From Gammaproteobacteria bacterium (GTDB lineage Bacteria; Pseudomonadota; Gammaproteobacteria; Natronospirales; REEB76), in the NCBI GenBank assembly GCA_049591615.1, contig JBAWFD010000101.1, positions 22,882 through 86,881 on the forward strand: a stretch of 64,000 bases of DNA, given 5' to 3'. A program made the position numbers and the translations under genes. Of the stretch, positions 4,297 to 31,355 are shown piece by piece. Under the pieces are notes generated by a model. The model saw only the letters and a program-made list of their open reading frames with translations, had not been told where the DNA came from and made no database searches. Within the stretch, counting starts at the first letter, position 1, and each line of letters starts with the position of its first letter.

Positions 4297-5127
4297 ATGT
4301 CGCTGAAAACAATTGCTATCTTTGTTGTCATGTGCATTAGCCTGCTGACTGAGGGCTGCGGCAGCAGCTCGAGCTCTTCCAGTTCCAGTAATACGACCGT
4401 GATCCTGCAAGTCGTGCCAGGGCCATGGAAGGGAACCTATAATCTCAACGGTAGCAGCAACATACCCGTGACCGGCACCGTGGCGGCCGGTGGTTTCGGC
4501 TATTTTGCCGACAACGACGGCAACGTGTTCCTGGTGGAGAATGTGCCCGAAGAATCACCTTTCTCCAGCATTGCTATTGCGACTGCCCCATCGGGACAGA
4601 CTTTTCCGGACGGTAACAGCGTCGATACATTCTCTGTCAATGGCAACTATGTTTCGACAGCCACCTCAACGAACATGACGGGCTCCCTTACGGGGATCGA
4701 TCCCAGCAGCTATGTATCCTATATTGGCTACGCAACTACCGGCGTGAATGGCAATTTCACTCTGGATTCCACTGTGCCCTATACGGGGACTCCGTCTATC
4801 GCCGGCTTGCAGGGCCAGTGGAATGGTTATTACACTGGCAAGACGTCTACCTCGGCAGATATCACAATCAACGCGGATGGCATTTTCAGCGGCAACGATG
4901 GCTACGGTTGCAGCATCAGCGGCAGCCTTGTGCAACAGGACCCCGGTACCAATACATACTTTGTGAACTATGTAAGCAGCGGCTCAGGTTGTCCTGGCGA
5001 CATGAATGGCTTGGCTTATGAAAGTACGATCGATGTATCAGGTGATTTTAGTGGCGCGGCCGGGACTTATTTCTATATGGGGCTATTCGGCCCGAACGTG
5101 GCGTACAGCGCGGAGTTCAAATTGTGA
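4297..5127 (+). CDS. Putative lipoprotein with a poly-Ser linker; function unknown
   Basis: MSLKTIAIFVVMCISLLTEGC followed by GSSSSSSSSSN. TAAGGAG lies upstream of the ATG at 4297, and the longer ORF from 4237 is judged an artefact. G/N/T/S/Y-rich composition like the preceding gene. Confidence 0.5.
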   Translation: MSLKTIAIFVVMCISLLTEGCGSSSSSSSSSNTTVILQVVPGPWKGTYNLNGSSNIPVTGTVAAGGFGYFADNDGNVFLVENVPEESPFSSIAIATAPSGQTFPDGNSVDTFSVNGNYVSTATSTNMTGSLTGIDPSSYVSYIGYATTGVNGNFTLDSTVPYTGTPSIAGLQGQWNGYYTGKTSTSADITINADGIFSGNDGYGCSISGSLVQQDPGTNTYFVNYVSSGSGCPGDMNGLAYESTIDVSGDFSGAAGTYFYMGLFGPNVAYSAEFKL

Positions 5128-10607: not shown

Positions 10608-10627
10608 CCAGGCCCTGCCAAATAAAA

Positions 10628-11614
10628 ATGTCAGCTCAGCGGCAACGCATTGCACTCACTACCGGTGAACCGGCTGGCATTGGTCCGGATATCTGCATTC
10701 AACTTGCGCAATCCGCGCATGCTGTCGACCTCATCGCCATCGGTGATGCAGAGTTGCTACTGGCGCGCGCGCGCGCCCTGCAGATGCCGCTGATAGTCAC
10801 GCCCTACAACCGGTCTGAAAGCAATCTACAACAGGCCGGCCAACTGCGGGTATTGTCGTTAAAAGCATCGGCGCCAGTAAGAACTGGCTCACCTGATCCC
10901 GCCAATAGCCGCTATGTTCTGGATAGCCTGGATCGCGCCGTGGATGGCTGCCTAAGTGGCGAATTTGATGCCATGGTCACTGCGCCGGTGCACAAGGGCG
11001 TTATCAATGAAGCCGGCATTCCATTCACTGGCCATACAGAATACTTGGCAGCACGCTGCAAATCCCGGGCCCCAGTCATGCTGCTTGCTACCAATAGCTT
11101 GCGCGTCGCACTGGCTACGACACACCTGCCTTTATCGCAAGTGCCAAGTGCGATAAGCCAAGCGATGCTGATGCGTACTCTGCGCACACTGCATGCCGAT
11201 CTGCAAAAACGCTTTGATATTCAACAGCCGCATATTCTGGTATTGGGGCTCAATCCGCATGCCGGTGAAGGCGGTCATCTGGGTCGCGAAGAAATCGAAA
11301 TTATCACGCCAGCCCTGGAGGCTCTGCGTACGCAAAATATGCATCTTACCGGTCCGGTGGCTGCTGATACTGCATTCAGTACCGAGCATCTGATGGGTGT
11401 GGATGCTGTGCTTGCTATGTACCACGACCAGGGATTGCCGGTACTGAAACAAGCCGGCTTTGGCCAGGCGGTGAACATCACCCTCGGCCTGCCCATCATC
11501 CGCACCTCGGTCGATCACGGTACAGCACTGGAGCTGGCAGGTACCGGTCGGGCGAAACACACCAGTCTCGAAGCCGCCCTCCGCATGGCCGTCGAATTGA
11601 GCCAGCGAAAGTGA
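10628..11614 (+). CDS. pdxA: 4-hydroxythreonine-4-phosphate dehydrogenase
   Basis: IALTTGEPAGIGPD, TGHTEYL, LNPHAGEGG and SVDHGTA motifs. Confidence 0.92.
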   Translation: MSAQRQRIALTTGEPAGIGPDICIQLAQSAHAVDLIAIGDAELLLARARALQMPLIVTPYNRSESNLQQAGQLRVLSLKASAPVRTGSPDPANSRYVLDSLDRAVDGCLSGEFDAMVTAPVHKGVINEAGIPFTGHTEYLAARCKSRAPVMLLATNSLRVALATTHLPLSQVPSAISQAMLMRTLRTLHADLQKRFDIQQPHILVLGLNPHAGEGGHLGREEIEIITPALEALRTQNMHLTGPVAADTAFSTEHLMGVDAVLAMYHDQGLPVLKQAGFGQAVNITLGLPIIRTSVDHGTALELAGTGRAKHTSLEAALRMAVELSQRK

Positions 11615-12405
11615 TACAACGCGACAGGTCAAGACCATTTCAAGCGCGCAAACGTTTCGGTCAGCATTTCCTGCATGATCGCAACGTCATCAACAAAATC
11701 CTGCTGGCCATCGATCCACAGCCGCACGATGTACTCGTGGAAATCGGCCCCGGCATGGGCGCCATTACCCTGCCGCTGCTGGAACGTTGCGGGGCATTGA
11801 CCGCCGTAGAACTGGATCGCGACGTGATCCCTGCGCTACAAGCAGCCGCCAAAGACAAGGGTGATTTGCGTCTCATTCAGGCCGACGCATTGAAAACCGA
11901 CTTTCATACTCTCACGCCAGAAGGATGCAAACTCCGGCTGGTGGGTAACCTGCCCTACAATATCTCCACGCCTCTGCTGTTTCACTGCCTAGACCAGATA
12001 GATGTGATTGCTGATATGCATTTCATGCTGCAGAAGGAGGTCGTGCAGCGCATGGCGGCACAGCCGGGCAGCAAGGATTATGGACGGCTCACGGTCATGC
12101 TGGCAGTGCGCTGCCGGGTGGAACCACTGCTCAACATTGGCGCGGGTGCATTTAAGCCGCCACCCAGGGTGGAATCCGCCTTCGTACGCCTGATACCCTA
12201 TGCACAAGCACCGTTCCCTTTGGGCGATACTGCACGCTTTAAAACCCTGGTCAATCAAGCTTTCAGCCGGCGGCGCAAGACCTTGCGCAATGCTCTCTTG
12301 GGTCTGGTGGACGAATCCGCCATCCGCCGAGCTGGCTTGGACCCTGCGGTACGACCCGAAACCTTGAGCGCCGCCGATTACGCGCATCTGGCTGATGGTA
12401 TATAA
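11611..12405 (+). CDS. rsmA: 16S rRNA (adenine1518/1519-N6) dimethyltransferase
   Basis: FGQHFLHD, VEIGPGMGAIT and GNLPYNISTP motifs. GTGA overlap with pdxA. Confidence 0.92.
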   Translation: MIQRDRSRPFQARKRFGQHFLHDRNVINKILLAIDPQPHDVLVEIGPGMGAITLPLLERCGALTAVELDRDVIPALQAAAKDKGDLRLIQADALKTDFHTLTPEGCKLRLVGNLPYNISTPLLFHCLDQIDVIADMHFMLQKEVVQRMAAQPGSKDYGRLTVMLAVRCRVEPLLNIGAGAFKPPPRVESAFVRLIPYAQAPFPLGDTARFKTLVNQAFSRRRKTLRNALLGLVDESAIRRAGLDPAVRPETLSAADYAHLADGI

Positions 12406-12481
12406 CTCCCGAGACTGAGATGCTTGCAATAGGCGCTGTCAGAGCTTAAAACGTCCTATCCAGAAAATCAGGAAGTGCCGT

Positions 12482-12916
12482 ATGAGCGTCTATAGCCAAG
12501 TCATGGTTGCCGTGGACCTGACCGAAGACAGTACTGCTGTGGCCCGCCGTGGGCACGCGTTGGCCACCCTTTGTGAAGCCAACCTGAGCTTTGTACATGT
12601 GGTGGAATTCATACCGGTGGATCCGGCCGGTGAAGCCCTGCTGCCGCCGCCCGTGGACTTGGAAGGTGAGCTGGTACAAGGCGCCCGCCAACGGTTGGAT
12701 GCCCTTTGCGACAACCTGGGCCTGCAAAAGACGCGCCGTCGGGTGGAAGTAGGCAACATCAAGGCCGAGATCCTGCGGGTTGCAACTGAGGAACGGGCCG
12801 ATTGTCTGGTGCTGGGCAGCCATGGGCGCCACGGTCTGGCACTACTGCTCGGCTCCACGGAGAAATCCCTGCTGCATAAGGCTCCTTGCGATGTACTGGC
12901 GGTGCGTTTGAGCTGA
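12482..12916 (+). CDS. Universal stress protein (UspA family)
   Basis: VMVAVDLTEDS...ADCLVLGSHGRHG...LLGSTEKSLLHKAPCDVLAV is the canonical Usp layout. Confidence 0.8.
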   Translation: MSVYSQVMVAVDLTEDSTAVARRGHALATLCEANLSFVHVVEFIPVDPAGEALLPPPVDLEGELVQGARQRLDALCDNLGLQKTRRRVEVGNIKAEILRVATEERADCLVLGSHGRHGLALLLGSTEKSLLHKAPCDVLAVRLS

Positions 12917-13014
12917 GCACACACCCATCTGTCATTAATTTACTGACAGCAAGCCGTTGGTTTTCGATAAAATAAGGCTTGCCAATCAAATCTCATGCCC
13001 TATCCATGATCGAG

Positions 13015-13389
13015 ATGTCCATCAATAATATCCATGTGGATGTAGAAACAGCTTTTGTGCCGGCCCAATCGGACCCTGGCCAGAACCGCTTTGTATTCGC
13101 CTATACCATCACTATCCGTAATCAGGGCTCATTACCGGCCAAACTCCTGACCCGCCACTGGCTAATCACCGATGCCAACGGCAAGGTGCAGGAGGTACGC
13201 GGTGAAGGTGTCGTGGGCGAACAACCGCATTTGAAGCCCGGAGAAGGTTTTCGTTATTCCAGTGGCGCGATACTGGAGACTCCGGTGGGAGCCATGCAGG
13301 GTGCCTACCAACTGGTGAACGACCAAGGCGAACATTTCGATGCCCCCATAGCACCCTTCCGGCTCGCGGTGCCAGGCTTACTGCACTGA
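13015..13389 (+). CDS. apaG: ApaG (DUF525) protein
   Basis: [13 protein letters not shown]...[28 protein letters not shown]. Start is the ATG at 13015 or 13006; the TTG at 12979 is unlikely. Confidence 0.85.
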
Positions 13390-14243
13390 TGGCAGTTTTC
13401 GCCGTCGGTGACGTCCAGGGCTGTTACGACGATCTGCAACGGTTGCTGGAGCGTCTTAACTTCAATCCGGAGGATGATACGCTGTGGTTAACCGGTGATC
13501 TGGTCAACCGCGGACCGCAATCTCTGGAGGTTTTGCGCTTCGTTAAGAGCCTGGGCAAAGGCGCCGTCTCGGTGCTCGGCAATCATGATCTGCACTTGCT
13601 GGCGCTTGCGGCCGGTATCGATAAACCCAAGCCCACCGACAGTCTGGATGCGGTGCTGACTGCTTCTGACCGAGATGAATTGCTGGACTGGCTGCGCCAC
13701 CGGCCATTGTTACACCAGGACCAAGCCTTGGGTTACACGCTGATCCATGCGGGACTGCCGCCCCAATGGGATTCTGCGATTGCGCAAGCCTGTGCGAACG
13801 AACTTGAGTACGTGCTGCGTGGCCATGATTACCTGGAATTCTTCAGGCACATGTATGGTAACCGTCCAAATCGCTGGTCTGATGCATTGCAAGGTATGGA
13901 ACGGTTGCGCTTCATCGTGAACTGCTTCACGCGCTTGCGTTACTGCACGCCGCAAGGCGCACTGGATCTGGCATCCAAAGGTGCCCCCGGAACACAACCT
14001 CAGGGCTACCTGCCCTGGTTCATGGTTCCGGAGCGCGCCAGTGCCGAATTGCACATCCTCTTCGGTCACTGGTCAGCCTTAGGCGAGATCAAGGGTCATA
14101 ATGTCTATCCGTTGGATACCGGCTGTGTCTGGGGTGGAAAACTATCCGCCCTGCGGCTCGATGGTGACGACAGTGGTAGCTGGTATTGCGTGGACTGTCC
14201 CGGCGCCCGGGAGCAGGCTGAAACGCAGTACTTTAGAATCTGA
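13389..14243 (+). CDS. apaH: Bis(5'-nucleosyl)-tetraphosphatase (symmetrical)
   Basis: AVGDVQGCYDDL, GDLVNRGP and GNHD metallophosphatase motifs. 1-nt overlap with apaG. Confidence 0.9.
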   Translation: MAVFAVGDVQGCYDDLQRLLERLNFNPEDDTLWLTGDLVNRGPQSLEVLRFVKSLGKGAVSVLGNHDLHLLALAAGIDKPKPTDSLDAVLTASDRDELLDWLRHRPLLHQDQALGYTLIHAGLPPQWDSAIAQACANELEYVLRGHDYLEFFRHMYGNRPNRWSDALQGMERLRFIVNCFTRLRYCTPQGALDLASKGAPGTQPQGYLPWFMVPERASAELHILFGHWSALGEIKGHNVYPLDTGCVWGGKLSALRLDGDDSGSWYCVDCPGAREQAETQYFRI

Positions 14244-14245
14244 TT

Positions 14246-15055
14246 ATGGCCAGCAGTACCTCCATCATGAATCTGCGCCTCGACGGCAAACAGGCACTGG
14301 TCTGCGGTGCGAGTCAGGGCATCGGTGCAGCTGCCGGTCGCGCCCTGGCGGAACTGGGCGTCAACGTCACACTGGTGGCGCGTTCGCGAGACAAGCTGGA
14401 AGCAATCCTGGCGCAACTCACCACCGGCAGCGGCCAGCGGCATGACTATTTCATTGCCGATTTCGACCAGCCGGAGACGCTCAAGACGGCGCTTGGCCTG
14501 TGGCTGAAGAATCACGCGCAGGCACATATCCTCATCAATAATTCCGGCGGCCCACCCGGCGGATCCGCCCATGCCGCGAGTATCGAAGAATATCAAAAAG
14601 CCTTCATGCGTTTCATGCTCTGCGGTCAGATGCTAGTGCAAGCGGTGCTGCCCGGTATGCAAAAATCAGGCTATGGTCGCATCATCAATGTGATTTCTAC
14701 ATCGGTGAAGGAACCTATCAAGGGACTGGGTGTGTCGAACACCATCCGCTGGGCAGTGGCAGGTTGGGCCAAGACCCTGGCCAGCGAGCTCGGACCTCAC
14801 GGCATCACGGTCAACAACATCCTGCCCGGCTTCACCCGTACACCCCGAATCGCCAGCTTGTTCAAGGCGCGTGCGGAAAAAGAACAACGCACCGTCTCTG
14901 ATATCGAAAAGGAAGCCATGTCACTGATCCCGCTGAGGCGGTTCGCAGAGCCTGAGGAGATCGCCGCCGCCATCGCCTTCCTGGCCTCACCTGCCGCGAG
15001 CTATATCAATGGCATCAACCTGCCGGTGGATGGTGGTCGTCTCCAAAGCCTCTAG
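14246..15055 (+). CDS. Short-chain dehydrogenase/reductase family protein with an atypical active-site region
   Basis: ALVCGASQGIGAA Rossmann motif, NNSGG and PG...T. By eye the YxxxK position reads S-N-T-I-R. Starts 2 nt after the apaH stop and ends 1 nt before the next gene. Confidence 0.7.
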   Translation: MASSTSIMNLRLDGKQALVCGASQGIGAAAGRALAELGVNVTLVARSRDKLEAILAQLTTGSGQRHDYFIADFDQPETLKTALGLWLKNHAQAHILINNSGGPPGGSAHAASIEEYQKAFMRFMLCGQMLVQAVLPGMQKSGYGRIINVISTSVKEPIKGLGVSNTIRWAVAGWAKTLASELGPHGITVNNILPGFTRTPRIASLFKARAEKEQRTVSDIEKEAMSLIPLRRFAEPEEIAAAIAFLASPAASYINGINLPVDGGRLQSL

Positions 15056-15056
15056 C

Positions 15057-16502
15057 ATGCAGAAACTTGCCAACTATATAGATGGTAAAACCCCCCCAGC
15101 GGCTTCGGGCGGCTGGCTTGAAGATTTTGAACCAGCCACCGGCCAGGTGTATGCGCATTGCCCTGATTCCGAAAAGGCCGATATAGACAATGCTGTCGCC
15201 GCTGCCCAGCATACCTTCCCGGCCTGGTCAGCCACGCCTGCGGCCGAGCGCGGCGAGAGGCTGCACAGACTCGCGGCGTTAATCGAACGCGATCTCGAAA
15301 AGCTGTCGCATGCTGAGAGCAAGGACTCTGGCAAACCCATCGCCCTCGCCCGCAGCCTGGATATCCCCCGGGCCGTAACCAACCTGCGTTTCTTTGCCGC
15401 CGCCGCCAGCCAGTTCGCCAGCGAATCGCATGCCATGGAATCCGGCGCCATCAACTATACGCTGCGCCCACCCCTGGGCGTGGTCGGCTGCATCTCGCCC
15501 TGGAACCTGCCGCTGTACCTGTTCACCTGGAAGATTGCTCCGGCACTCGCGGCCGGTAACTGCGTAGTGGCGAAACCTTCTGAACTTACGCCTATGACCG
15601 CCTATCTGTTCTCGGAACTCTGCATCGAAGCCGATCTGCCGCCCGGCGTGCTCAATGTTGTGCACGGCCTCGGGTCAAAAGCCGGTACGGCCCTGGTTGA
15701 ACATCCGCAGGTGAAGGCTATCTCCTTCACTGGTGGCACCCGGACCGGCGCCGACATCGCCGCTCGTGCGGGACCCAAGTTCAAGAAGTTGTCACTGGAA
15801 CTGGGCGGCAAGAACCCGACCCTGGTGTTCGCCGACTGTGATTTCGAAACCACGGTGTCGGAAACTGTGCGAGCAGCGTTCTCCAATCAGGGTGAGATCT
15901 GCCTGTGCGGCTCACGCATACTTATCGAACGCAGCCTGTATGCGCGCTTTCGCGACGCATTCGTGGCGCGCGCCCGTAGCTTGCGTCAGGGCGATCCAAA
16001 AGATGAGCGTACTGAACAAGGCGCGTTGATCTCCGCGGCACATCTGCAAAAAGTCATGGGATACGTCGAGCTCGCCCAGAAAGAGGGTGGAAAGATCCTG
16101 TGCGGAGGTCGGCGTGCAAAACTCGGCGGCCGCTGCGCCGACGGTTGGTTCGTGGAGCCGACAGTCATCGAAAACCTGGCGTCAGATTGCCGCACTAACC
16201 AGGAAGAAATCTTCGGCCCGGTGGTCACGCTGATTCCTTTCGACACCGAAGACCAAGCCGTTGCTTACGCCAATGGGACGCCTTACGGCCTCGCTGCCTC
16301 TCTCTGGAGCCGCGATATAGCGCGCTGCCACCGCGTAGCCGCGAGGCTGGAAGCTGGTCTCATCTGGATCAACTGCTGGATGCTGCGCGACCTGCGCGTG
16401 CCTATGGGCGGCGTGAAGCAGTCCGGTACCGGTCGTGAAGGCGGCTGGGAAGCCATGCGCTTCTTCACAGAAGCGCGCAACATCTGCATCAAGTATGAAT
16501 AA
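15057..16502 (+). CDS. NAD-dependent aldehyde dehydrogenase, probably 2-aminomuconate-6-semialdehyde dehydrogenase
   Basis: ALDH motifs ELGGKNP and EICLCGSR (catalytic Cys) and EEIFGPV. Context between the RidA, HAAO and ACMSD genes. Confidence 0.75.
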   Translation: MQKLANYIDGKTPPAASGGWLEDFEPATGQVYAHCPDSEKADIDNAVAAAQHTFPAWSATPAAERGERLHRLAALIERDLEKLSHAESKDSGKPIALARSLDIPRAVTNLRFFAAAASQFASESHAMESGAINYTLRPPLGVVGCISPWNLPLYLFTWKIAPALAAGNCVVAKPSELTPMTAYLFSELCIEADLPPGVLNVVHGLGSKAGTALVEHPQVKAISFTGGTRTGADIAARAGPKFKKLSLELGGKNPTLVFADCDFETTVSETVRAAFSNQGEICLCGSRILIERSLYARFRDAFVARARSLRQGDPKDERTEQGALISAAHLQKVMGYVELAQKEGGKILCGGRRAKLGGRCADGWFVEPTVIENLASDCRTNQEEIFGPVVTLIPFDTEDQAVAYANGTPYGLAASLWSRDIARCHRVAARLEAGLIWINCWMLRDLRVPMGGVKQSGTGREGGWEAMRFFTEARNICIKYE

Positions 16503-16917
16503 GCGCAGCAAGATAGCATCCACCAACGCACCAGAGCCGGTCGGGCTTTATCCGCATGCGCGGCGCGTCGGTGATCTGCTGTTCCTCTCCGGTGTAGGCC
16601 CGCGCAAGCGCGGCAGCAAAGATATCCCCGGTGTGAAGCTCGACGCCCATGGAAATGTCCTCAGTTATGAAATCGAGGCCCAGTGCCATTCGGTGTTCGA
16701 GAATGTGCGCCTGATACTGGAAGATGCCGGTTCTGGCTGGGACCGGCTGGTGGACGTGTGCGTATTCCTCACCGACATGCGGCGCGACTTCGTCACCTAC
16801 AACCGAATCTACGCCGAATACTTCAAAGATAACCAGCCCTGTCGCACCACGGTGGAAGTGACAGCGCTGCCGACGCCCATCGCCATCGAACTCAAATGCA
16901 TTGCCACGATTGACTGA
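16495..16917 (+). CDS. RidA/YjgF-family deaminase, putative 2-aminomuconate deaminase
   Basis: [25 protein letters not shown]...CRTTVEV RidA signature. 8-nt overlap with the ALDH gene. Confidence 0.7.
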
Positions 16918-16934
16918 GATTTGGGGAGGACGCC

Positions 16935-17456
16935 ATGAGCGCCATGAACGTACTCAATTTCCATAAATGGATCGACGACAACCGTCATCTGCTAAAGCCG
17001 CCAGTCGGCAACAAATGCGTCTATGACGGCGACTTCATCGTCATGGTGGTGGGTGGGCCCAATTCCCGCAAGGACTATCACTACGACGAAGGTCCGGAAT
17101 TCTTTCATCAGATCGAAGGTGAGATGCTGCTGAAGACCATGCAGGGTGGCAGGCCGGTCGATTACCCTATCCGCGCCGGCGAGATATTCCTGCTGCCGCC
17201 ACGCGTGCCGCATTCACCACAGCGTTTCGCCAACTCCGTTGGCCTCGTAATCGAGCGCAAGCGTCTGCCTGACGAACAGGATGGGCTGCTGTGGTTCTGC
17301 GAACGATGCCACAGCAAACTCTATGAGGAATACTTCAGACTGCTGAACATCGAGAAGGATTTCCCGCCGGTGTTTGACCGGTTCTTCGGCAACCTGGAGT
17401 ATCGCACCTGCAAAAAATGCGGTGCCGTGATGGATGCGCCGGACAAGAAAAAATAA
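16935..17456 (+). CDS. nbaC: 3-hydroxyanthranilate 3,4-dioxygenase
   Basis: Cupin core [18 protein letters not shown]...[16 protein letters not shown] and a C-terminal CERC...CKKC rubredoxin-like site. GGGGAGGA SD upstream. Confidence 0.9.
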
Positions 17457-17459
17457 CAC

Positions 17460-18470
17460 ATGCTGAAGATAGACATCCACACCCACATCCTGCCCAGCAA
17501 CTGGCCGGACCTGAAGGAAAAATACGGCTACGGCGGTTTCGTGCAGCTGCATCACCACGGTCCAGGTTGCGCACGCCTGCTGAAAGACGGTGAATTTTTC
17601 CGGGAGGTGCAAGCCAATTGCTGGGATGGCGAGGTCCGGCTGCGCGAATGCGCTGCCCATGGAGTGGGCGTGCAGGTATTGTCCACCGTACCGGTGATGT
17701 TCAGCTATTGGGCAAAGCCCAAAGATACCTTGGACCTGTCCCGCCTGTTGAACGATCACATCGCCGGCCTGGTGGCAGAACACCCGCGCCGCTTCGTCGG
17801 CCTCGGCACACTGCCACTGCAATCACCGGAGCTGGCCATCCGCGAACTGCAACGTTGCATCCAAGAGCTGGGATTTCCTGGTGTACAGATCGGCACGCAT
17901 GTGAACGGCATGAACCTGGACGATCCGCAGCTGTTTCCGGTGTTCGAAGCCGCCCAGGAACTGGGTGCTGCAGTCTTCGTGCATCCCTGGGACATGCTCG
18001 GCAAGGAGCGTATGCGCAAATACTGGACACCGTGGCTGGTGGCCATGCCGGCGGAGACCTCATTGGCCGTGTGCTCGATGATCTTCGGTGGCATATTCGA
18101 ACGTCTGCCCAAACTGCGTGTGTGTTTCGCCCATGGGGGTGGTGCATTTCCTGCCACCCTGGGGCGCATCGAGCATGGCTTCCAGGTGCGTCCCGATTTG
18201 TGCGCCGTGGACAACAGCATCAATCCCGCAAATTATCTCGGCAAGTTTTATGTGGATTCATTGGTGCATCACGCGGGCATGTTGAACTATATGATCGATC
18301 TCCTGGGTGCGAACAGCATCGCACTCGGCAGCGACTATCCATTTCCCCTGGGTGAACATATGCCGGGCCAGCTCATCGAATCCATGCCGCTTGACACCGA
18401 GACCAAACAGCGGCTTTTGCATGGTACCGCTCTGGAGTGGTTGCGGCTCGATAAGGCGCAGTACCTGTGA
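17460..18470 (+). CDS. nbaD: 2-amino-3-carboxymuconate-6-semialdehyde decarboxylase (amidohydrolase family)
   Basis: IDIHTHILP...FVHPWDM...FAHGGGAFP...[10 protein letters not shown]. Confidence 0.85.
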
Positions 18471-19243
18471 ATATCCTGCGTTTTGAAATCGGCAACCATC
18501 ATTGCAGCGTGGACACGGCGCGTGGTGTATCGCTGGCGATACCCCTGCAGTTCGACGGTCCACAGCCCAACTTTTTCGCGGCACCCACCGCCAGTGCCGA
18601 AGCGCTGCAGACGGATGACTTCATCGGCGATACCCATCAGGGTGGCAGCTGCAATGTCAGCCATTACCACCTGGTCCCCCACTGCAATGGCACGCACACG
18701 GAATGCATCGGTCACGTGGTGGACGATGCCGCCACCGTGACCGAGCAGCTGCGTCAATCACTGCTGCCGGCCACCCTGGTCACGCTTGCGCCGCGTCATA
18801 ACCTCATCGATGCGGCGCTGATCAAGATGAGCCTGCAGCATCATCCGATGCCCGAACTGCATACGGCCTTCATCATCCGCACCCTGCCCAACACCCGGGA
18901 AAAGCTCTCACACCGGTACGATGTTGTGCCGCCGGCGTATCTGGCTGAAGAAGCCGTAGGCTTGCTGGTGGCTGCCGGCGTCGAACACCTGCTGGTGGAT
19001 CTGCCATCCCTCGATCCCATGCACGACGAGGGACGGCTGGCGGCACACCGCGCTTTCTGGGGCTTGCCCGCCAGCAGCCGACGCCTAGCCGATGCCAAGC
19101 GGCCGCGCGCCACCATCACCGAGATGATCTATGTGCCCGATCAGGTCAAGGACGGCTACTACCTGCTGGACCTGCAGATCCCGGCGTTCATGAGTGACGC
19201 TGCACCCAGCCGACCTGTAATCTATCCGGTAGAAATGAAATGA
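18467..19243 (+). CDS. Cyclase-family protein, putative kynurenine formamidase with a variant metal motif
   Basis: [12 protein letters not shown] resembles the cyclase/KynB HxGTHxDxPxH motif with D->E and P->I. ATGA-type overlaps with both neighbours. Confidence 0.5.
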
Positions 19244-20520
19244 TCTTCCGCACCGATGCCAAGTTCGCCGCTGAGATGGACCGGTCTGACCCGTTGGCCG
19301 ATTATCGCTACAAATTTCACATTCCAACCTACGAGGATGGCGAAGAAATATATCTATGCGGCAACTCTCTCGGGTTACAGCCGAAAGCCACCGAACGTTA
19401 CCTACATGAGGAACTGGAGGACTGGGCGCGTCTGGGTGTGAAGGGCCATTTCGCCGGACGCCGCCCATGGATGCCTTATCACGAACTGTTCAGCGAGCGC
19501 AGCGCGCGCCTGGTGGGCGCCGAACCGCTGGAAGTCATCAACATGAATTCACTCACCGTCAACCTGCACCTGATGCTGGTGAGTTTCTACCGGCCTACGG
19601 CAGCACGCAACCGCATACTCATCGAGCGCAGCGCCTTTCCCTCCGATCGATACGCGGTGGCATCCCAGATCCGTTTCCACGGCTTCGACCCGGACACCAG
19701 CCTGGTGGAACTCGCATCTGCCGGAGCCCTGCGGACACTGGATATAGATGAGGTGGAGGCCCTCATCCGTGCCGAAGGTGAGCGTCTTGCGCTGGTGATG
19801 CTACCGGGGGTGCAGTACGCCAGCGGCCAGGTATTTGATATGGCACGCATCACGCGCGCGGCCCATGCGGTGGGCGCGGTAGCCGGTTTCGACCTGGCGC
19901 ATGCCGCCGGCAACTTGCCGCTGCAGCTCCACGATTGGGACGTGGATTTTGCCGTATGGTGCAACTACAAATATATGAATGCCGGTCCTGGTGCGGTAGC
20001 CGGCTGCTTCGTGCACGCGCGCCACGCCCGCGCGCTTGAGCTGCCGCGCTTTGCCGGCTGGTGGGGTCACGACAAGGCTACGCGCTTCCGTATGGGTCCG
20101 GAGTTCGTGCCCATGCCCGGCGCGGAAGGCTGGCAGATCAGCAACCCACCAATCCTGGCGCTGGCACCCTTGCTGGCGTCCTTGGAGATCTTCGATGACG
20201 TAGGCATGCCTAAACTGCGGGAGAAATCCCTGCAGCTCAGCGGTTATCTTGAATTCCTGCTGGACCAGCGACTGCCAGAAGCAGTTGAGATACTCACGCC
20301 GCGTAATCCTACCGAACGCGGTTGCCAGCTATCGCTGCGGATCTCAGGCAGCCACAGTCGTGCCAGGGAGATCTTTACGCGCCTGGAGCAGGCCGGCGTG
20401 ACCGCCGACTGGCGCGAACCGGATGTCCTGCGTATTGCTCCGGTGCCGCTCTACAACACTTATGCCGACGTGTACCGCTTCGTGGACATCCTTGATAAGG
20501 TGGTCAGTGACGCGTTATAA
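19240..20520 (+). CDS. kynU: Kynureninase
   Basis: IYLCGNSLGLQPK, DLAHAAGN and the WCNYKYMNAGPG PLP-lysine region. Confidence 0.9.
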   Translation: MIFRTDAKFAAEMDRSDPLADYRYKFHIPTYEDGEEIYLCGNSLGLQPKATERYLHEELEDWARLGVKGHFAGRRPWMPYHELFSERSARLVGAEPLEVINMNSLTVNLHLMLVSFYRPTAARNRILIERSAFPSDRYAVASQIRFHGFDPDTSLVELASAGALRTLDIDEVEALIRAEGERLALVMLPGVQYASGQVFDMARITRAAHAVGAVAGFDLAHAAGNLPLQLHDWDVDFAVWCNYKYMNAGPGAVAGCFVHARHARALELPRFAGWWGHDKATRFRMGPEFVPMPGAEGWQISNPPILALAPLLASLEIFDDVGMPKLREKSLQLSGYLEFLLDQRLPEAVEILTPRNPTERGCQLSLRISGSHSRAREIFTRLEQAGVTADWREPDVLRIAPVPLYNTYADVYRFVDILDKVVSDAL

Positions 20521-20572
20521 AACGCGTACATTAACCCCGCACAAAGATAATTAAAAAATCGCTTTTGTCATT

Positions 20573-21934
20573 ATGCATACTGATAAAGAGATTACATTGA
20601 TTGGCGCCGGCCTGGCCGGCAGCCTGCTGTCCATCTTCCTGGCGCGCCGTGGTCTCCAAGTGACGGTCTACGAACGCCAGCCCGACATGCGGCATCACGA
20701 CATCGCTGCCGGCCGATCCATCAATCTGGCCCTGGCCCAGCGTGGCATCCGGCCACTCAAAGAGGCTGGCATATTCGAACAGGTCTCGAAGCTCCTGATC
20801 CCCATGCGCGGACGCATGCTGCACGATGAGCAGGGCCACACGACACTGACACCTTACGGCCGTAAATCCACCGAAGTTATTCATTCGATCTCGCGGCCTG
20901 GTCTGAACAGATTGCTCATGAATGCCGCGCAGGCCGCGGGTGCCAACATACTGTTCCAGCAGCGTTGCGAGGACATGGATTTCGAAAATTCTACACTGAC
21001 ACTCAGTGATCAATCCGGCAAACAATATTCCATCAATGCCCACAGCGTGATCGCCACGGATGGCGGCGGATCGACGCTACGCCAGGCCCTGGTGAAACGG
21101 CTTGGCGTCAACGTGGTGGAAGATATCCTGCCCCACGGTTACAAGGAACTCGCCATCAACGCTGGTGCAGACGGCCACCATCGTTTGGATCGCGAAGCCT
21201 TGCACATCTGGCCACGCGGCGGTTACATGCTCATCGCCCTGCCGAACCTGGACGGCAGCTTCACGGTGACCTTGTTTTTGCCCATGCAAGGCGACCCCAG
21301 TTTTGCTTCCCTGGATAAGCCCAGGGCCGTGCTGAAATTCTTTGAGAAGAATTTCCCCGACGCTCTGCAGCTATTACCCAATCTGGAAAATGAATTCTTT
21401 GCACATCCCATCGGATTCATGGGCACGGTGCATTGCGCGCGCTGGCATGCGGATGGCAAGCTTCTGTTGCTGGGAGATGCCGCCCACGCCATCGTGCCTT
21501 TCCACGGTCAGGGCATGAACTGCGCCTTCGAGGATTGCCTGCTCCTGGACCGATGTCTGGATAAATACGGCGATGATTGGCAAAGCATATTCAGCGAGTT
21601 CGAGACCTTGCGTCGCCCGGATACCGAAGCCATCGCCGAGATGGCACTGGAAAACTACGTGGAGATGCGTGCTATGGTACGCAATTCCAGGTTCCAGCTG
21701 CAAAAGCAACTTGGCTTCCTGCTGGAAGAGCGTCACCCAGGCATATTCGTGCCACGCTACTCCATGGTGATGTTCCATCACTTACCTTATTCCGAGGCCA
21801 GGCGCCGCGGTGCGATTCAGCAACGGATACTTGACGATCTGACCGCTGATACTACGTCCCTCGAGCAGGTGGATTTTGAGCGCGCCGATGCGCTGATCGA
21901 TGAAACTCTCGGAACCAGCAGGATAGAGGCATGA
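20573..21934 (+). CDS. kmo: Kynurenine 3-monooxygenase (FAD)
   Basis: ITLIGAGLAGSLLSIFLARRG dinucleotide fold. LLGDAAHAIVPFHGQGMNCAFED FAD motif. Confidence 0.88.
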   Translation: MHTDKEITLIGAGLAGSLLSIFLARRGLQVTVYERQPDMRHHDIAAGRSINLALAQRGIRPLKEAGIFEQVSKLLIPMRGRMLHDEQGHTTLTPYGRKSTEVIHSISRPGLNRLLMNAAQAAGANILFQQRCEDMDFENSTLTLSDQSGKQYSINAHSVIATDGGGSTLRQALVKRLGVNVVEDILPHGYKELAINAGADGHHRLDREALHIWPRGGYMLIALPNLDGSFTVTLFLPMQGDPSFASLDKPRAVLKFFEKNFPDALQLLPNLENEFFAHPIGFMGTVHCARWHADGKLLLLGDAAHAIVPFHGQGMNCAFEDCLLLDRCLDKYGDDWQSIFSEFETLRRPDTEAIAEMALENYVEMRAMVRNSRFQLQKQLGFLLEERHPGIFVPRYSMVMFHHLPYSEARRRGAIQQRILDDLTADTTSLEQVDFERADALIDETLGTSRIEA

Positions 21935-22983
21935 ACACTCATCCTTTCCTTCAGGGCCTGGGCAGCAACCCCGATTTCCTACTGCAGAATTTTGACCTGG
22001 CAAATCGTCGTGCACTGGTGGTGCGGGTCAACGAGAGTGTTTACCGGGAAGCATCCTTCCTGGATGACCGCATATTAAATCCCCAGACGGAAGGATTCTG
22101 GCTGCCGCTGGAATCTGTGTTGCAGCAGACGGGCCAGCTTACACCCGCTAAGCCGCACTATATTTTCCATGTTGGGCATTGCGGTTCCACACTCATTTCG
22201 CGTCTGCTCGCGGAACTGCCTCATTGTCTACCGTTGCGGGAACCGATGTCGCTTTTAACTCTTGCAGTTGCCAGACGCGAACTGGGCCGTGTTTCTTCCT
22301 GGTTGACGACTGCGCAATGGAACCAGCTGCTACAGACTGCCATCAGCTCGCTCGCCAGGACTTACCGGAAATCTGATAAATCCCTGATTAAGGTCACCAG
22401 TAATGCAGGCAACCTGCTGGAATCCCTACTACCAGTATCGGAAGGGGACTCGCATATCTTGATGATGTATATCAGTCTGGAATCCTATCTGGCGGTTATG
22501 TTGCGGACTCAGGATCTTCGCGCCAGCATCCATGCTTTTTCACCTGTATGGATGACAGATTTCTGCCGTCTGACGGGAAGAACTGATCTGTGTTTAGCTG
22601 AACTCGGCGATGCACAACAAATCACTCTTAAATGGCTTGTTATCTTGATGCTGTTCGTGCGGGCGGGAACATCATCACAGTCTGAGTCACAATTGCTCAA
22701 CTTCGACAAATTCCTCATGAATCCTCTGGAGCGATTCATGCAGATAACCGGATTATTTAAACTTGAATGCGACATGGAAAAAGCTCGACAGCTGCTTGAT
22801 GGGCCTATGATGCAGAGATATTCCAAGATTCCAACGCAGAGCTTCAATCACACGCAACGCAATAGCGAACTGCGGGACGCGCGTCAGAAATTCCAGCCTG
22901 AGATTAATGCTGGCCTCAAGTGGGCAGAGACGCTATGTCGCGAAATACCCGCACTTGCGTCTGTGGCCGCTTATCTCGGTTAA
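21931..22983 (+). CDS. Hypothetical protein, sulfotransferase-fold-like
   Basis: HYIFHVGHCGSTLISRLLAELPHCLPLREP resembles the PAPS 5'-phosphosulfate-binding loop (G-x-x-R/x-S-G-S-T-L-L...EP). ATGA overlap with kmo. GC is visibly lower (~40-47% in sampled lines). Confidence 0.4.
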   Translation: MNTHPFLQGLGSNPDFLLQNFDLANRRALVVRVNESVYREASFLDDRILNPQTEGFWLPLESVLQQTGQLTPAKPHYIFHVGHCGSTLISRLLAELPHCLPLREPMSLLTLAVARRELGRVSSWLTTAQWNQLLQTAISSLARTYRKSDKSLIKVTSNAGNLLESLLPVSEGDSHILMMYISLESYLAVMLRTQDLRASIHAFSPVWMTDFCRLTGRTDLCLAELGDAQQITLKWLVILMLFVRAGTSSQSESQLLNFDKFLMNPLERFMQITGLFKLECDMEKARQLLDGPMMQRYSKIPTQSFNHTQRNSELRDARQKFQPEINAGLKWAETLCREIPALASVAAYLG

Positions 22984-23004
22984 ATACTGCTTGTATCGCC
23001 AAGC

Positions 23005-23505
23005 TTAGGCCACATTGCGAGGTAGCTTGCGCTCCAGCGTGATGAAGGAATACGGGTGGGCATTAAGCATGTCAGCTGCATGATCCTCGCGTGCTATCTC
23101 ACGCCAGCTTGAGGTATCAATCGCCGGGAAGAAGGTATCTGCATCGAAATGCGCGTGCACACGCGTCAGGTATATCCGCTGTGTCCGCGGCAAGGCCTCG
23201 TGGTAGATCTCGCCGCCGCCGATGACCATACTTTCTGCAGACCCAGCGGCCAGCACTAAAGCATCTGTGAATGACTGCGTGACTTCGCAGCCAGGAGGGC
23301 TGTAGCCAGGTCTACGGGAAACCACGATGTTGCGTCGCTCTGGCAAGGGCTTGCCGATGGCCTCGAACGTCTTGCGCCCCATGATGACCGGTTTGCCAAG
23401 TGTTATTGATTTGAAATGCTTGAGATCAGCCGGCAGATGCCATGGCATGCGGCCGGCCTTGCCGATCTCGTTGTTTTCACCAGCGGCAACAACCAGAGAA
23501 AGCAT
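23005..23505 (-). CDS. folA: Dihydrofolate reductase
   Basis: IGKAGRMPWHLPADLKHFKSITLGKPVIMGRKTFEAIG. Confidence 0.9.
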   Translation of the reverse strand: MLSLVVAAGENNEIGKAGRMPWHLPADLKHFKSITLGKPVIMGRKTFEAIGKPLPERRNIVVSRRPGYSPPGCEVTQSFTDALVLAAGSAESMVIGGGEIYHEALPRTQRIYLTRVHAHFDADTFFPAIDTSSWREIAREDHAADMLNAHPYSFITLERKLPRNVA

Positions 23506-23558
23506 TAATCCGACTTGGCACCGATCGGTGCTGTATTAATAGCGAACATGCAATGCGT

Positions 23559-24353
23559 TCAAACAGCGATCTGCGCTTTGATGGCGGAGTGGCTCTGGTA
23601 ACCGGTAATCTCGAAATCTTCATACTGATAATCGAACAGGCTCGGCGGTTTGCGCTTGATATGCAGGCTCGGTAATCGATGCGGTTCGCGTGATAATTGT
23701 TCATCCACCTGCTGCAGATGATTCAGATACAGATGGCAGTCGCCCCCGGTCCAGATGAACTCTCCCGGCTTGAGGCCAGTCTGTTGCGCGAGCATATGCG
23801 TGAGCAGTGCGTAGGAACAGATATTGAATGGCACGCCTAGGAAGATATCGGCGCTGCGTTGGTAGAGCTGGCAGGATAACCGGCCTTCGGCTACATAGAA
23901 CTGGAAGAACGCATGACAGGGTTGCAACGCCATCTCCTGCAGATCGGCCACGTTCCAGGCGCTGACGATGATGCGGCGCGAATCGGGGGTGTTACGCAGT
24001 TGCTCGAGCACCTTCTTTACCTGGTCGATATGGCGCCCATCCGGCGCCGGCCAGGAACGCCATTGATAACCGTACACCGGCCCGAGATCGCCATTCTCGT
24101 CTGCCCATTCATCCCAGATGCTGACGCCATGCTCATGCAGATATCGGGTATTGGTATCGCCACGCAAGAACCACAGGAGTTCATGGATGATGGAGCGGAA
24201 ATGCAGTTTCTTGGTGGTGACCGCCGGAAATCCTGCATTCAGGTCGAACCGCATCTGGTAACCGAATACCGAAAGCGTACCGGTGCCGGTACGGTCACTC
24301 TTGCGCGTACCATGGTCACGCACATGCCGCATGAGTTCCAGGTACTGTCGCAT
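23559..24353 (-). CDS. thyA: Thymidylate synthase
   Basis: [11 protein letters not shown]...DRTGTGT...[12 protein letters not shown]...[13 protein letters not shown]. Start at the internal ATG (24353), 264 aa. TGATG 1-nt overlap with lgt. Confidence 0.95.
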
Positions 24354-29293: not shown

Positions 29294-29887
29294 ATGTCAT
29301 CTACTAAGGATATGGGAACCGCCCTTGTATCCATGACCCCTATAGAGGCCTGGAAGGAAAGCCCCGAGGAGGCGGCCGGGCTGGTGAGCCGCGCCCAGGC
29401 CGGCGATACGGCTGCATTCGAGCGGCTCTACCGGCAGCATGCAGGCCGCATGTATGCCGTGTGCCTGCGCATCATCGCCGATCGGCCCGCGGCCGAGGAA
29501 TGTACCCAGGATGCCTTCGTCCGTGCCTGGGGCGCGCTCGACAAATTCCGCGGTGATAGCAGTTTTGGCACTTGGCTGACGCGCATCGCCATCAACGTGG
29601 CACTGCAGCGACTGAAGCTCGACCGGCGGCACCTGCGCCTGATTCAACCCGACGGCGAAAAGATATTGGAGAGCTTGCCGGGGGCTTCAGATACACCCGA
29701 GGCAGATATGGATCTTGAACGTCTGATCGCGTCGTTGCCCCCTGCTGCGCGCATGGTATTCGTGCTGCACGCCATCGAGGGCTATAGCCATGAGGAAATT
29801 GCGGAGTTGACCGGCAGGTCTATCGGTACCTGCAAGGCGCACGTGCACCGAGCACGGCAAATATTGCAAGCGAGGATGCAGATATGA
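29294..29887 (+). CDS. ECF-type RNA polymerase sigma-70 factor
   Basis: Region 2 (FERLYRQHAGRMYAVCLRI...AEECTQDAFVRAW) and region 4 (EGYSHEEIAELTGRSIGTCKAHVHRAR). Confidence 0.85.
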   Translation: MSSTKDMGTALVSMTPIEAWKESPEEAAGLVSRAQAGDTAAFERLYRQHAGRMYAVCLRIIADRPAAEECTQDAFVRAWGALDKFRGDSSFGTWLTRIAINVALQRLKLDRRHLRLIQPDGEKILESLPGASDTPEADMDLERLIASLPPAARMVFVLHAIEGYSHEEIAELTGRSIGTCKAHVHRARQILQARMQI

Positions 29888-30411
29888 ATATACATGATGA
29901 AAAGCGACTGGACGCTGGCCTGGCAAAACTGCCGCGCAGCATCGAACCTCAACAGGACCTGTGGCCTGGAATCTATGCACGCATCACGCAACACCAGTCG
30001 CTGCGTTCGCGCCGTAGCGGGAGCTACGGTCTCGCAGCCGCAGCGCTGCTGGTGGTCGGTGTAGCCGCTGTCTGGATCAGCCTCAACCTACACGCACCTG
30101 CACCAGACAAAAATTTAGCTGAGGTTGTGCCGCACACAAAATCCACACAGGCCATGCCTAATGATCTAAATCTTCAATTTGCAGCACAACTTGCCAGCGA
30201 TAAAGGCCTGCCATCAGCGGCGCGCATGGCGCTGGTGGATAATTTGCGTATTATCCATGACGCTATCCTCCGCACTCAGGCAGCGGTGAAGAAATATCCC
30301 AGTGATGTAAACCTGCAATCACTGTTACTTGATTTATATCAGCAGGAGGCCCGGCTGATGGCCGAAGCCCAGCAGGCCCAGATCCAAACTACTATGAGGA
30401 CTACACTATGA
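29884..30411 (+). CDS. Putative membrane-anchored anti-sigma factor
   Basis: ATGA overlap with the sigma gene. Single TM segment (YGLAAAALLVVGVAAVWISL) between the cytoplasmic and periplasmic parts. Confidence 0.55.
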   Translation: MNIHDEKRLDAGLAKLPRSIEPQQDLWPGIYARITQHQSLRSRRSGSYGLAAAALLVVGVAAVWISLNLHAPAPDKNLAEVVPHTKSTQAMPNDLNLQFAAQLASDKGLPSAARMALVDNLRIIHDAILRTQAAVKKYPSDVNLQSLLLDLYQQEARLMAEAQQAQIQTTMRTTL

Positions 30412-31355
30412 AACGCGCACTCATCATCATTTCCTATTTGCTACTGTCACTGGTAGGGATCGGTATCCTGGCTTCAGCTGTGATGCTCACCGCCAATTCC
30501 GCCTATGCGCACCCGGTCAACGATGGCACACCCATCAATGAGACTCGCAGCGCCAAGGCCAATGGCAGCGTGGCGATCTCTAACGTGGCTGGCTCCGTGA
30601 AAGTCCAGGGCTGGAACAAGAACGAGATTCATGTGGGCGGGATGCTCGGCCGAGGTACAGAGCGTCTCGATATCACGACCTCCGGCGATGGCTACAGCAT
30701 CCGCGTGATTCTGCCCAGAGATTCCGATGATAATGTTGAGGGCTCGGACTTGGTGATCAATGTGCCCATTGCCAGCCGCTTGTCGGTGAATACAGTGAGT
30801 GCCGGCATCGATGCTGATGCTCTCAACGGAACCGCACAACTTGTAAGTGTGAGCGGCAACGTGACGCTTAAGTCCAATGACAGTGATATCTCCGCCAGAT
30901 CCGTGAGCGGTGCGGTGAATATCCTGGGTTCCACCAACGACGCCTATGTGCGCGCCCATAGCGTTAGCGGTGATGTCAAAATCGATGGAGTGGGTGGTGA
31001 CCTGCAGGCCGAGAGTGTCAGCGGTACTGCTAAAGTTATCCAGAGTCGCCTGAGCCGCGCACAATTGAGCTCCACTTCAGGCAACGTGGACTTCACCGGT
31101 GCACTGCAGAAGAATGGCAGCTATTCCTTCAACAGCATCAGCGGCAATCTGACGCTGGTATTGCTAGTCACCCCCGATGCGCGCTTCGATATTTCCAGCT
31201 TCAGTGGCGACATCAACAACGCGTTTGGCCCCAAGGCGCAACGCACCAGTGAATACTACGCACCGGGTGAAGAACTGCACTTCGTGAGCGGCAGCGGCAG
31301 CGCCCAAGTCAACGCCCGCACCCTGAGCGGTAATATCTCCCTGCGCACACCTTGA
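30408..31355 (+). CDS. DUF4097-like beta-helical repeat protein (LiaG/YvlB-type putative adhesin)
   Basis: N-terminal TM/signal segment. Reiterated SVSG-x-V/I motifs (SVSGNVTL, SVSGAVNI, SVSGDVKI, SVSGTAKV, SISGNLTL, LSGNISL). ATGA overlap with the anti-sigma gene. Confidence 0.65.
   Translation: MKRALIIISYLLLSLVGIGILASAVMLTANSAYAHPVNDGTPINETRSAKANGSVAISNVAGSVKVQGWNKNEIHVGGMLGRGTERLDITTSGDGYSIRVILPRDSDDNVEGSDLVINVPIASRLSVNTVSAGIDADALNGTAQLVSVSGNVTLKSNDSDISARSVSGAVNILGSTNDAYVRAHSVSGDVKIDGVGGDLQAESVSGTAKVIQSRLSRAQLSSTSGNVDFTGALQKNGSYSFNSISGNLTLVLLVTPDARFDISSFSGDINNAFGPKAQRTSEYYAPGEELHFVSGSGSAQVNARTLSGNISLRTP

Follow-up and report, generated by a model that had tools for sequence, protein, structure and literature searches.

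A divergent sulfotransferase-fold gene overlapping kynurenine 3-monooxygenase at the end of a gammaproteobacterial kynurenine operon

Introduction

Why does a bacterial operon for kynurenine catabolism end in a gene that resembles a sulfotransferase? The question is raised by a stretch of 64,000 nucleotides from a Gammaproteobacteria bacterium (assembly GCA_049591615.1, contig JBAWFD010000101.1), here called the window. In it, an uninterrupted open reading frame (ORF) for 350 amino acids (21931-22983) forms the last gene of a kynurenine catabolic operon, directly after kmo, which encodes a kynurenine 3-monooxygenase-type FAD hydroxylase. All coordinates are window positions, and features lie on the forward strand unless stated otherwise. 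We refer to the ORF as the sulfotransferase-like (ST-like) gene. The original prediction, made from the letters alone, had called it sulfotransferase-like and foreign in composition, and had considered both a role in the kynurenine pathway and an unrelated late insertion.

We tentatively propose that the gene encodes a catalytically competent, divergent sulfotransferase, co-produced with KMO, which would sulfate the phenolic hydroxyl made by KMO on 3-hydroxykynurenine or a derivative and so form an accessory branch. This is a reading that we favor with reserve and would not yet rely on. The analysis draws on the intact ORF, an AlphaFold2 model, Foldseek, hhalign, and the ratio of nonsynonymous to synonymous substitution rates (dN/dS). 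Relatives were collected in two scans. A scan of 185,579 species genomes gave 245 relatives, of which 80 loci were examined, and a KMO-seeded metagenome scan contributed the best 80 of 591 KMO-encoding stretches. Individual loci are cited by number (L) where they must be told apart.

Junction with kmo and operon layout

The ATG of the ST-like gene (21931-21933) overlaps the TGA of the upstream gene, which encodes a 453-amino-acid FAD monooxygenase (20573-21934). The resulting ATGA (21931-21934) is a signature of translational coupling; it had been pointed out earlier and was confirmed in the sequence. An AGGA inside the 3' end of kmo (21920-21923), 7 nt before the ATG, may act as a Shine-Dalgarno-like element. 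No promoter- or terminator-like site was found between the two genes, and a scan of positions 13000-24000 gave nothing above shuffle expectation. The ST-like gene thus reads as co-directional with the pathway genes and coupled to the last of them.

The identity of kmo is based on matches to Pfam FAD_binding_3 and to VioC/KMO-like NCBIfam models, and it is gene 8 of a co-directional, tightly packed cluster. The eight genes before the ST-like gene (14246-21934) were assigned by Pfam and encode a short-chain dehydrogenase/reductase (SDR, 14246-15055), an aldehyde dehydrogenase, a RidA-type deaminase, a 3-hydroxyanthranilate dioxygenase, which is the 3,4-dioxygenase (HAAO), an amidohydrolase of the 2-amino-3-carboxymuconate semialdehyde decarboxylase (ACMSD) type, a cyclase-type formamidase, kynureninase, and KMO. 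Bacterial kynurenine/2-amino-3-carboxymuconate semialdehyde clusters have the same enzyme set and order: formamidase, kynureninase, KMO, HAAO, ACMSD, aminomuconate semialdehyde dehydrogenase, and RidA-type deaminase are shared. On the other side, convergent genes follow in the order folA, thyA, lgt, and rlmI. folA (23005-23505, reverse strand) lies 21 nt from the ST-like stop and marks the junction where the ST-like gene was inserted; it is named from its dihydrofolate-reductase-like translation, and its synteny is conserved in orthologous loci.

Fold and family

Evidence for the fold comes from profiles and from a predicted structure. PF13469 (Sulfotransfer_3) was matched by 35 of 46 close relatives with sub-threshold to moderate scores (best 2e-7), and the few family members checked singly fall below the Pfam gathering cut-off. 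A profile built from 139 family members matched the sulfotransferases OLS-ST (4gox) and Mycobacterium tuberculosis Stf1 (2zq5) at E = 7.8e-5, and other solved sulfotransferases more weakly. When aligned by hhalign with canonical Sulfotransfer_3 domains linked to tetratricopeptide repeats (TPR) and taken from related loci, the family reached probabilities of 94.5% and 95.8% (E = 7e-8 and 7e-9).

The AlphaFold2 model, built on 46 sequences, has a pLDDT of 92.2 and a pTM of 0.91, and it predicts a single alpha/beta domain with a parallel beta-sheet that is similar to solved sulfotransferases. The best 50 Foldseek matches in the PDB were all sulfotransferases, led by SULT1C2, an Alicyclobacillus sulfotransferase, the tyrosylprotein sulfotransferase TPST2, CurM-ST, and TPST1, with Teg12 also among the 50. 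The fold suggested by the original prediction is thus borne out by both approaches. At the level of profiles and the predicted model, the protein is a member of the sulfotransferase superfamily with a TPST/Sulfotransfer_3-like architecture.

The family itself is separate, unannotated, and of the sulfotransferase type, with a single domain and about 350 amino acids. A word-indexed search found 519 proteins, all named "hypothetical protein", and an exhaustive search at E<1e-3 found 1688 clusters at 50% identity; none of the source databases queried has a name for the family. The family-wide motif ASFLDxR sits in an N-terminal module of about 75 residues, to which nothing in the matched structures corresponds. 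Three longer members (P0161, P0181, and P0185), inspected as a Rosetta-stone check, showed no informative extra Pfam domain.

The putative active site

Sulfotransferases bind the phosphosulfate of 3'-phosphoadenosine 5'-phosphosulfate (PAPS) through a 5'-phosphosulfate binding (PSB) loop. A strand-loop-helix of this type, FHVGHCGSTLISR, lies at 22165-22203. In profile alignments (hidden Markov model alignment to 4gox and 4gbm; hhalign), this donor loop matches the PSB loops of OLS (4gox) and CurM (4gbm) column for column, with FIFHiGHcGSTL facing FILSSPRSGSTL. Relative to the PSB consensus [K/R]-[S/T]-G-[S/T]-[S/T], G85-S86-T87 is invariant, the canonical Arg/Lys is replaced by His83, and the Ser by Cys84. 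H83, C84, G85, S86, and T87 are kept in 83-84 of the 84 homologues extracted from genomes. The loop recognized in the original prediction is present and aligned, though with His in place of Lys/Arg. L101, the deepest-branching kmo-linked copy, has Arg at position 83 and reads ARCGST, the sole exception at this position among the kmo-linked proteins. Because this copy carries the canonical residue, HCGST is probably a true PSB loop in which His and Arg interchange naturally.

Two further residues are of the kind expected in a catalytic site. In R103-E104-P105 (22237-22245), which is invariant in 84 of 84 homologues, the putative general base Glu104 aligns with the conserved Glu of canonical sulfotransferase domains. 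It follows His83 by 21 residues, which is the spacing of Arg78 and Glu99 in human TPST2 and of Arg74 and Glu95 in tick TPST. In TPSTs, the Arg is the general acid, the Glu is the general base, and Lys158/154 stabilizes the transition state (PMC10951654). Lys154 (22390-22392), invariant in 139 of 139 and 84 of 84 sequences, is the probable equivalent of TPST2 Lys158, with an alignment offset of 2 residues. By sequence, both a candidate catalytic Glu and a Lys of the transition-state type are thus present.

Toward the C terminus, the segment LLNFDKFLMNPLERFMQITGLF (22693-22758), in which F258 and L262 are nearly invariant, aligned in hmmsearch on the "YEDL..dP...l..i..FLG" region of the solved LGS1, SULT1A, OLS-ST, and Stf1 chains, in agreement with its earlier assignment to the C-terminal region of sulfotransferases. 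Further on, conservation picks out the family-wide invariant basic and aromatic residues Y297-S-K299 ... R310 (22819-22860). The homologue alignment also shows two switches specific to the kmo-linked clade. Leu109 (22255-22257) and Trp207 (22549-22551) replace residues that are Arg in 82% and 96%, respectively, of the homologues not linked to kmo. These changes from Arg to hydrophobic or aromatic residues (R109L and R207W) are consistent with a remodeled acceptor pocket in the clade.

Two groups of known enzymes are closest. TPSTs (human TPST1/2 and the tick enzyme; PDB 5wri and 3ap1) are among the best structural matches, with a TM-score of up to 0.64 normalized to TPST1, and they share the strand-loop-helix donor loop, a Glu 21 residues after the loop acid residue, and the invariant Lys. 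They sulfate a phenolic hydroxyl on an aromatic amino acid. The general acid is Arg in TPSTs, whereas it would be His in the ST-like protein, which also has the additional N-terminal module and an identity to TPSTs of only about 11-14%. TPSTs are Golgi enzymes that modify proteins, in contrast to the cytosolic bacterial operon context considered here. By sequence profile, the PF13469 sulfotransferases (the CurM and OLS domains 4gbm and 4gox, and mycobacterial Stf1, 2zq5) are closest; the PSB loop and the C-terminal "FDdfL..P...L" region align, whereas RSG(S/T)T becomes HCGST, the RxPxDxxxS motif for 3'-phosphate binding (3'-PB) is missing, and the window protein falls below Pfam thresholds.

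Conservation of the kmo link

The original prediction had drawn attention to the position beside kmo, and both adjacency and start/stop overlap proved to be conserved, with the gene present in all close relatives. Neither of the outcomes that the original prediction had named as refuting, a lack of structural similarity to sulfotransferases and absence from the operon of close relatives, was thus observed. In all 31 genome loci of at least 42% identity, the ST-like gene lies directly 3' of kmo, in the same nine-gene operon and next to the same convergent folA-thyA-lgt-rlmI. L081 and L101 from the metagenome scan likewise have kmo directly upstream; the latter represents a more distant lineage (KMO 54% and ST-like protein 31% identical), again with the gene between kmo and folA. 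The overlap, in the form [A/G/T]TGA, is kept at nearly all of 30 orthologous junctions and over ST-like identities from 42% to 75%. In L028, a 3.1-kb insertion (L028:6809-10001) separates the two genes; there, an ATGA and a remnant resembling the 3' end of kmo still stand directly upstream of the ST-like start.

The gene is under purifying selection, with dN/dS of 0.12-0.23 against five relatives, and has the highest dN in every comparison made. Its divergence is partly discordant with that of its neighbors. In KMO (80-82%), KYNU (89%), and folA (84%), L011 and L003 are equally close to the window, whereas the ST-like protein of L011 is only 46-49% identical, compared to 75% between the window and L003. 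Similarly, L015 and L008 share 85% identity in KMO and only 52% in the ST-like protein. The divergent genes lie at about 2440-3486 in L011, 10001-11047 in L012, and 8699-9745 in L015 (locus positions). Such a pattern suggests either that alleles have been exchanged within the clade while their place in the operon stayed the same, or that there has been episodic acceleration. The NTGA overlap persists in the strongly divergent alleles of L011 and L012. Since position and overlap are kept in every case of a divergent allele, the comparison argues that selection preserves co-expression with kmo.

Origin and composition

In a neighbor-joining tree of 84 homologues, the 34 kmo-linked proteins form one clade without intruders. 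The whole region from the SDR gene to rlmI is syntenic among the orthologous loci. In nine sister lineages with KMO about 49-57% identical (L083, L116, L120, L137, L145, L148, L150, L151, and L156), the sampled kynurenine clusters end at kmo, which abuts convergent folA, and the ST-like gene is absent. Judged by tree and synteny, the ST-like gene is an old single insertion at the kmo/folA junction in the ancestor of a clade of uncultured soil Gammaproteobacteria, and has been retained since.

A recent horizontal acquisition, or a decaying insert of foreign composition, has some points in its favor. The gene has the lowest GC (0.508) and the lowest GC at third codon positions (GC3, 0.547) of its operon, it is absent from the junction of the sister lineages, and its divergence is discordant with that of its flanks, as in L011 and the L015/L008 pair. 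The corresponding values for kmo are 0.569 and 0.676; GC3 is 0.68-0.73 across the seven genes from the aldehyde dehydrogenase gene to kmo, and 0.61-0.73 in the wider neighborhood. The two 60-nt lines of 47% and 40% GC on which the original prediction had relied do exist, though they are the lowest of the gene, and its GC is indeed below that of kmo, which is 0.569 rather than about 60%.

The notion of a foreign composition was not upheld by a wider comparison. Over 61 long ORFs of the window, GC3 has a mean of 0.65 and a standard deviation (SD) of 0.078, so the gene is about 1.3 SD low and no outlier; several other window genes have equally low values. Most of the dip falls in codons 200-300, which are also the fastest-evolving and least conserved part. 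Among 21 orthologous loci, the GC3 of the ST-like gene tracks that of its neighbors with a median deficit of about 0.03, and the marked dip is shared only by the nearest relative, L003. Because the deviation is small, the dip is local, and the orthologues match their neighbors, the composition is a slight peculiarity that a fast-evolving gene shows in one sub-lineage, and not a mark of recent foreign origin.

Other observations agree. Against L003, the gene has a dS of 0.72, within the 0.30-0.79 of the flanking genes, and a dN/dS of 0.23. The ORF is intact, 39 residues are invariant among 46 relatives, and the same site is occupied in all 34 related loci. No integrase, transposase, or other mobility gene was recognizable among the flanking genes identified. 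Composition, distribution, and mobility genes together thus do not describe a recently acquired genomic island. The late insertion that had been offered as an alternative is contradicted by a clade-wide gene with identities down to 31-42%, and we rejected the readings as a pseudogene or a recent transfer on dN/dS, conservation, and composition. This explanation is largely refuted and essentially excluded.

Distant family members and their neighbors

Outside the kmo-linked clade, 50 homologues in 49 loci below 40% identity were surveyed. They come from Dokdonella, Lysobacter, other Lysobacterales, Chromatiales, and some Planctomycetota and Alphaproteobacteria bins. A 2-oxoglutarate (2OG)-Fe(II) oxygenase gene occurs within 6 kb in 22 of the 49 loci, and 20 such genes, in 17 loci, lie no more than 300 bp from a family member. 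Six of these 20 are co-directional and directly upstream, which is the same layout as that of kmo and the ST-like gene. This recurring pairing with unrelated oxygenase classes is compatible with a "hydroxylate, then sulfate" logic. Canonical TPR-Sulfotransfer_3 proteins are found in 16 distant loci and a TonB-dependent receptor in 12, and a lipid-A-type acyltransferase gene stands directly upstream of a family member in two. The distant contexts are also a hint that the acceptors of the ancestral family were unrelated to tryptophan and possibly macromolecular.

Some of these neighborhoods are of interest in their own right. An apparently undescribed conserved cluster of Dokdonella and other Lysobacterales (L040, L042, L046, L054, L066, and L067; about 4-11 kb per locus) combines a TonB-dependent receptor, two TPR-Sulfotransfer_3 proteins, and an ST-like member. 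A P4H-like 2OG-Fe(II) oxygenase belongs to it only in L066 and L067, and a convergent PiuC-like 2OG oxygenase gene follows it in five of the six loci. A literature search for the combination of TonB receptor, TPR-sulfotransferase, and 2OG oxygenase found no bacterial precedent. In L031 (7350-11032), two tandem ST-like paralogues enclose a lipid-A-biosynthesis-type acyltransferase gene (PF03279), and in L032 the same acyltransferase gene is directly upstream of the ST-like member; both hint at an envelope-lipid substrate in that lineage.

Proposed function and rival explanations

If the gene product does sulfate a KMO product, its FHxGHCGST strand-loop-helix would bind the phosphosulfate of a sulfonucleotide donor, most likely PAPS. 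His83 would take the general-acid role of the usual Arg/Lys, Glu104 would deprotonate the acceptor hydroxyl, and Lys154 would stabilize the transferring sulfuryl group. The acceptor would most likely be the phenolic hydroxyl introduced by KMO, on 3-hydroxykynurenine or on its derivatives 3-hydroxyanthranilate or xanthurenate. The outcome may be an accessory branch, produced at a constant ratio to KMO, that serves detoxification, export, or tailoring. By analogy, 3-hydroxykynurenine would suit a TPST-like fold acting on the phenolic hydroxyl of an aromatic amino acid. In animals such as insects, and in the lamprey buccal gland, cytosolic SULTs make 3-hydroxykynurenine O-sulfate or xanthurenate sulfate. 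These SULTs are canonical PF00685 enzymes with a Lys in the PSB loop and a His base; they have no family-level homology to the ST-like protein and are not operon-encoded. The proposed reaction, sulfation of a KMO product, appears to exist in animals; papers that name 3-hydroxykynurenine together with an O-sulfate (e.g., PMC10462737 and PMC9356239) deal with animals or metabolomics.

Were this to hold in its most specific form, the protein would be the first bacterial 3-hydroxykynurenine/3-hydroxyanthranilate O-sulfotransferase, with an HCGST loop and without a classical 3'-PB motif, in a hydroxylase-paired "hydroxylate-then-sulfate" module, and part of a family of more than 1,600 clusters; we consider this full version rather unlikely. 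What is new here is the combination of non-canonical donor motifs and a new pathway context, whereas the sulfotransferase superfamily is already known. A confirmed function would add a sulfated branch to bacterial tryptophan catabolism, where none is known, and give soil bacteria a means to neutralize the o-aminophenols that KMO produces, which are redox-toxic, or to export them. A function would also be assigned to a large family of "hypothetical proteins", and a sulfotransferase that works with a PSB His and without the canonical 3'-PB motif would widen the recognition rules for such enzymes. Should the proposal fail, what remains is a well-documented operon-terminal accessory gene, adjacent to kmo through a single insertion and not through pathway membership.

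Several observations weigh against a sulfotransferase of KMO products. For the window protein itself, Pfam, NCBIfam, and the PDB sequences (searched with phmmer) gave no match above threshold, and the Lys/Arg replaced by His83 is found in all characterized sulfotransferases. The 3'-PB motif, which the original prediction had named as something to look for, could not be made out: the classical pair, an Arg at a strand end and a Ser on the next helix, is unrecognizable in the profile alignment, where Ser182 and Val189 stand at the canonical Arg and Ser positions in a region of low alignment confidence. The first of these positions is D/P/S/R and the second T/V/A across the family, and both also vary in the clade. 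Because the Arg/Ser pair is unrecognizable, PAPS binding by the protein is, on sequence grounds, not assured. No PAPS-synthesis gene was seen among 40 of the about 61 window ORFs that were scanned. Since sister lineages with the same kmo/folA synteny lack the ST-like gene, it is, as far as these genomes tell, dispensable for the kynurenine pathway and accessory to it. Kynurenine genes were found near none of the family members in the 49 distant loci, and all 34 kmo-linked copies belong to one clade with the same flanks, so the association does not extend to independent lineages or contexts; a single insertion that was then inherited vertically could account for the adjacency. Sulfation of an intermediate of catabolism also consumes ATP and would draw carbon away. 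We know of no described kynurenine cluster with a sulfotransferase-like gene, and the searchable literature held neither a sulfotransferase gene in a bacterial kynurenine cluster nor a precedent for bacterial 3-hydroxykynurenine O-sulfation.

Alternatively, the protein could be an active sulfotransferase with an acceptor unrelated to tryptophan catabolism, such as a peptide, a protein, an envelope lipid, or a glycan. Its gene would have landed once in the kmo/folA gap at the 3' end of the operon and been inherited there, where operon transcription and the overlap offer convenient expression. Outside the kmo-linked clade, the family of 1688 clusters is never found beside kynurenine genes, and its usual neighbors, the TPR-sulfotransferases, TonB-dependent receptors, and P4H-like 2OG oxygenases, along with the acyltransferase of L031 and L032, suggest that the substrates are macromolecules or envelope components. 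Protein tyrosine sulfotransferases give the best fold matches, the sister lineages run the same pathway without the gene, and the complete synteny from the SDR gene to rlmI makes adjacency alone weak evidence of a functional link. However, the NTGA overlap has been kept over 42%-75% identity and through apparent allele replacement, which argues for selection on co-expression with kmo; the clade has specificity switches of its own, R109L and R207W; and the TPR-sulfotransferase, TonB-receptor, and 2OG-oxygenase families of the distant neighborhoods were not detected in the kmo-linked loci. We regard an unrelated acceptor as unlikely on balance, albeit with a sizeable chance of being correct.

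A different possibility is that the fold has outlived its chemistry, and that the protein has ceased to transfer sulfate from PAPS. A different donor or reaction is conceivable, as is a role as a binding, regulatory, or chaperone partner of KMO. Analogues are the orphan SULT4A1 and those sulfotransferase-fold enzymes that use sulfation as a leaving-group strategy. The replacement of the PSB Arg/Lys by His and the absence of the 3'-PB pair from the profile alignment would be understandable in such a protein, as would the invariant His80-x-x-His83-Cys84 cluster, which is unusual for a PSB loop; a partner protein would also fit with stoichiometric coupling to KMO. Conservation of the PSB and 3'-PB motifs among all sulfotransferases has been described (TPST structure review, PMC10951654). 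Nevertheless, Glu104, Lys154, the G-S-T of the loop, and the residues of the C-terminal nucleotide region are invariant in a large, old family, as is typical of a catalytic site, and L101 has Arg in the loop. Furthermore, the invariant Y297, K299, R310, and R143, together with the clade-invariant R197, are candidate contacts to the nucleotide or its 3'-phosphate that could replace the 3'-PB pair; K299, R310, R143, and R197 in particular could take over 3'-phosphate binding. A non-canonical or non-catalytic function of this kind seems rather unlikely to us.

Other features of the window

The kynurenine operon of nine genes is appended to a conserved surA-pdxA-rsmA-(usp)-apaG-apaH cluster (9210-14246), and it starts 2 nt past the apaH stop (14243 to 14246) without a promoter-like site. 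The operon and the scanned ORFs, 40 of about 61 in the window, showed neither a tryptophan 2,3-dioxygenase gene nor a pathway regulator. The ST-like gene was considered as a stand-in for the missing dioxygenase and rejected, as its fold is that of a sulfotransferase and not of a haem dioxygenase. A quinolinate synthase gene, nadA, lies at 43322-44428 (reverse strand), which indicates that the aspartate route to NAD is present. Because nadA is found elsewhere in the window, the ACMSD-containing operon is most likely purely catabolic rather than NAD-biosynthetic.

Scans of the window for tRNAs and Rfam families gave no matches. No Pfam match at E<=1e-5 was obtained for two ORFs of 572 and 296 amino acids (2453-4171 and 4237-5127), which lipA and a nucleotidyltransferase gene flank. 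At 29294-31355, an ORF resembling an extracytoplasmic function (ECF) sigma factor, as judged from its sequence, is followed by an overlapping ORF of 175 amino acids (no Pfam match, GC3 0.53) and by a DUF4097 "toastrack" protein; the set is likely a sigma/anti-sigma module. The strongest compositional outlier of the window by far is a GH18 (chitinase-family) gene at 45306-46640, with a GC of 0.44 and a GC3 of 0.45. It is flanked by a NUDIX gene and by an ORF of 184 amino acids without a Pfam match, and it is a better candidate for horizontal acquisition than the ST-like gene.

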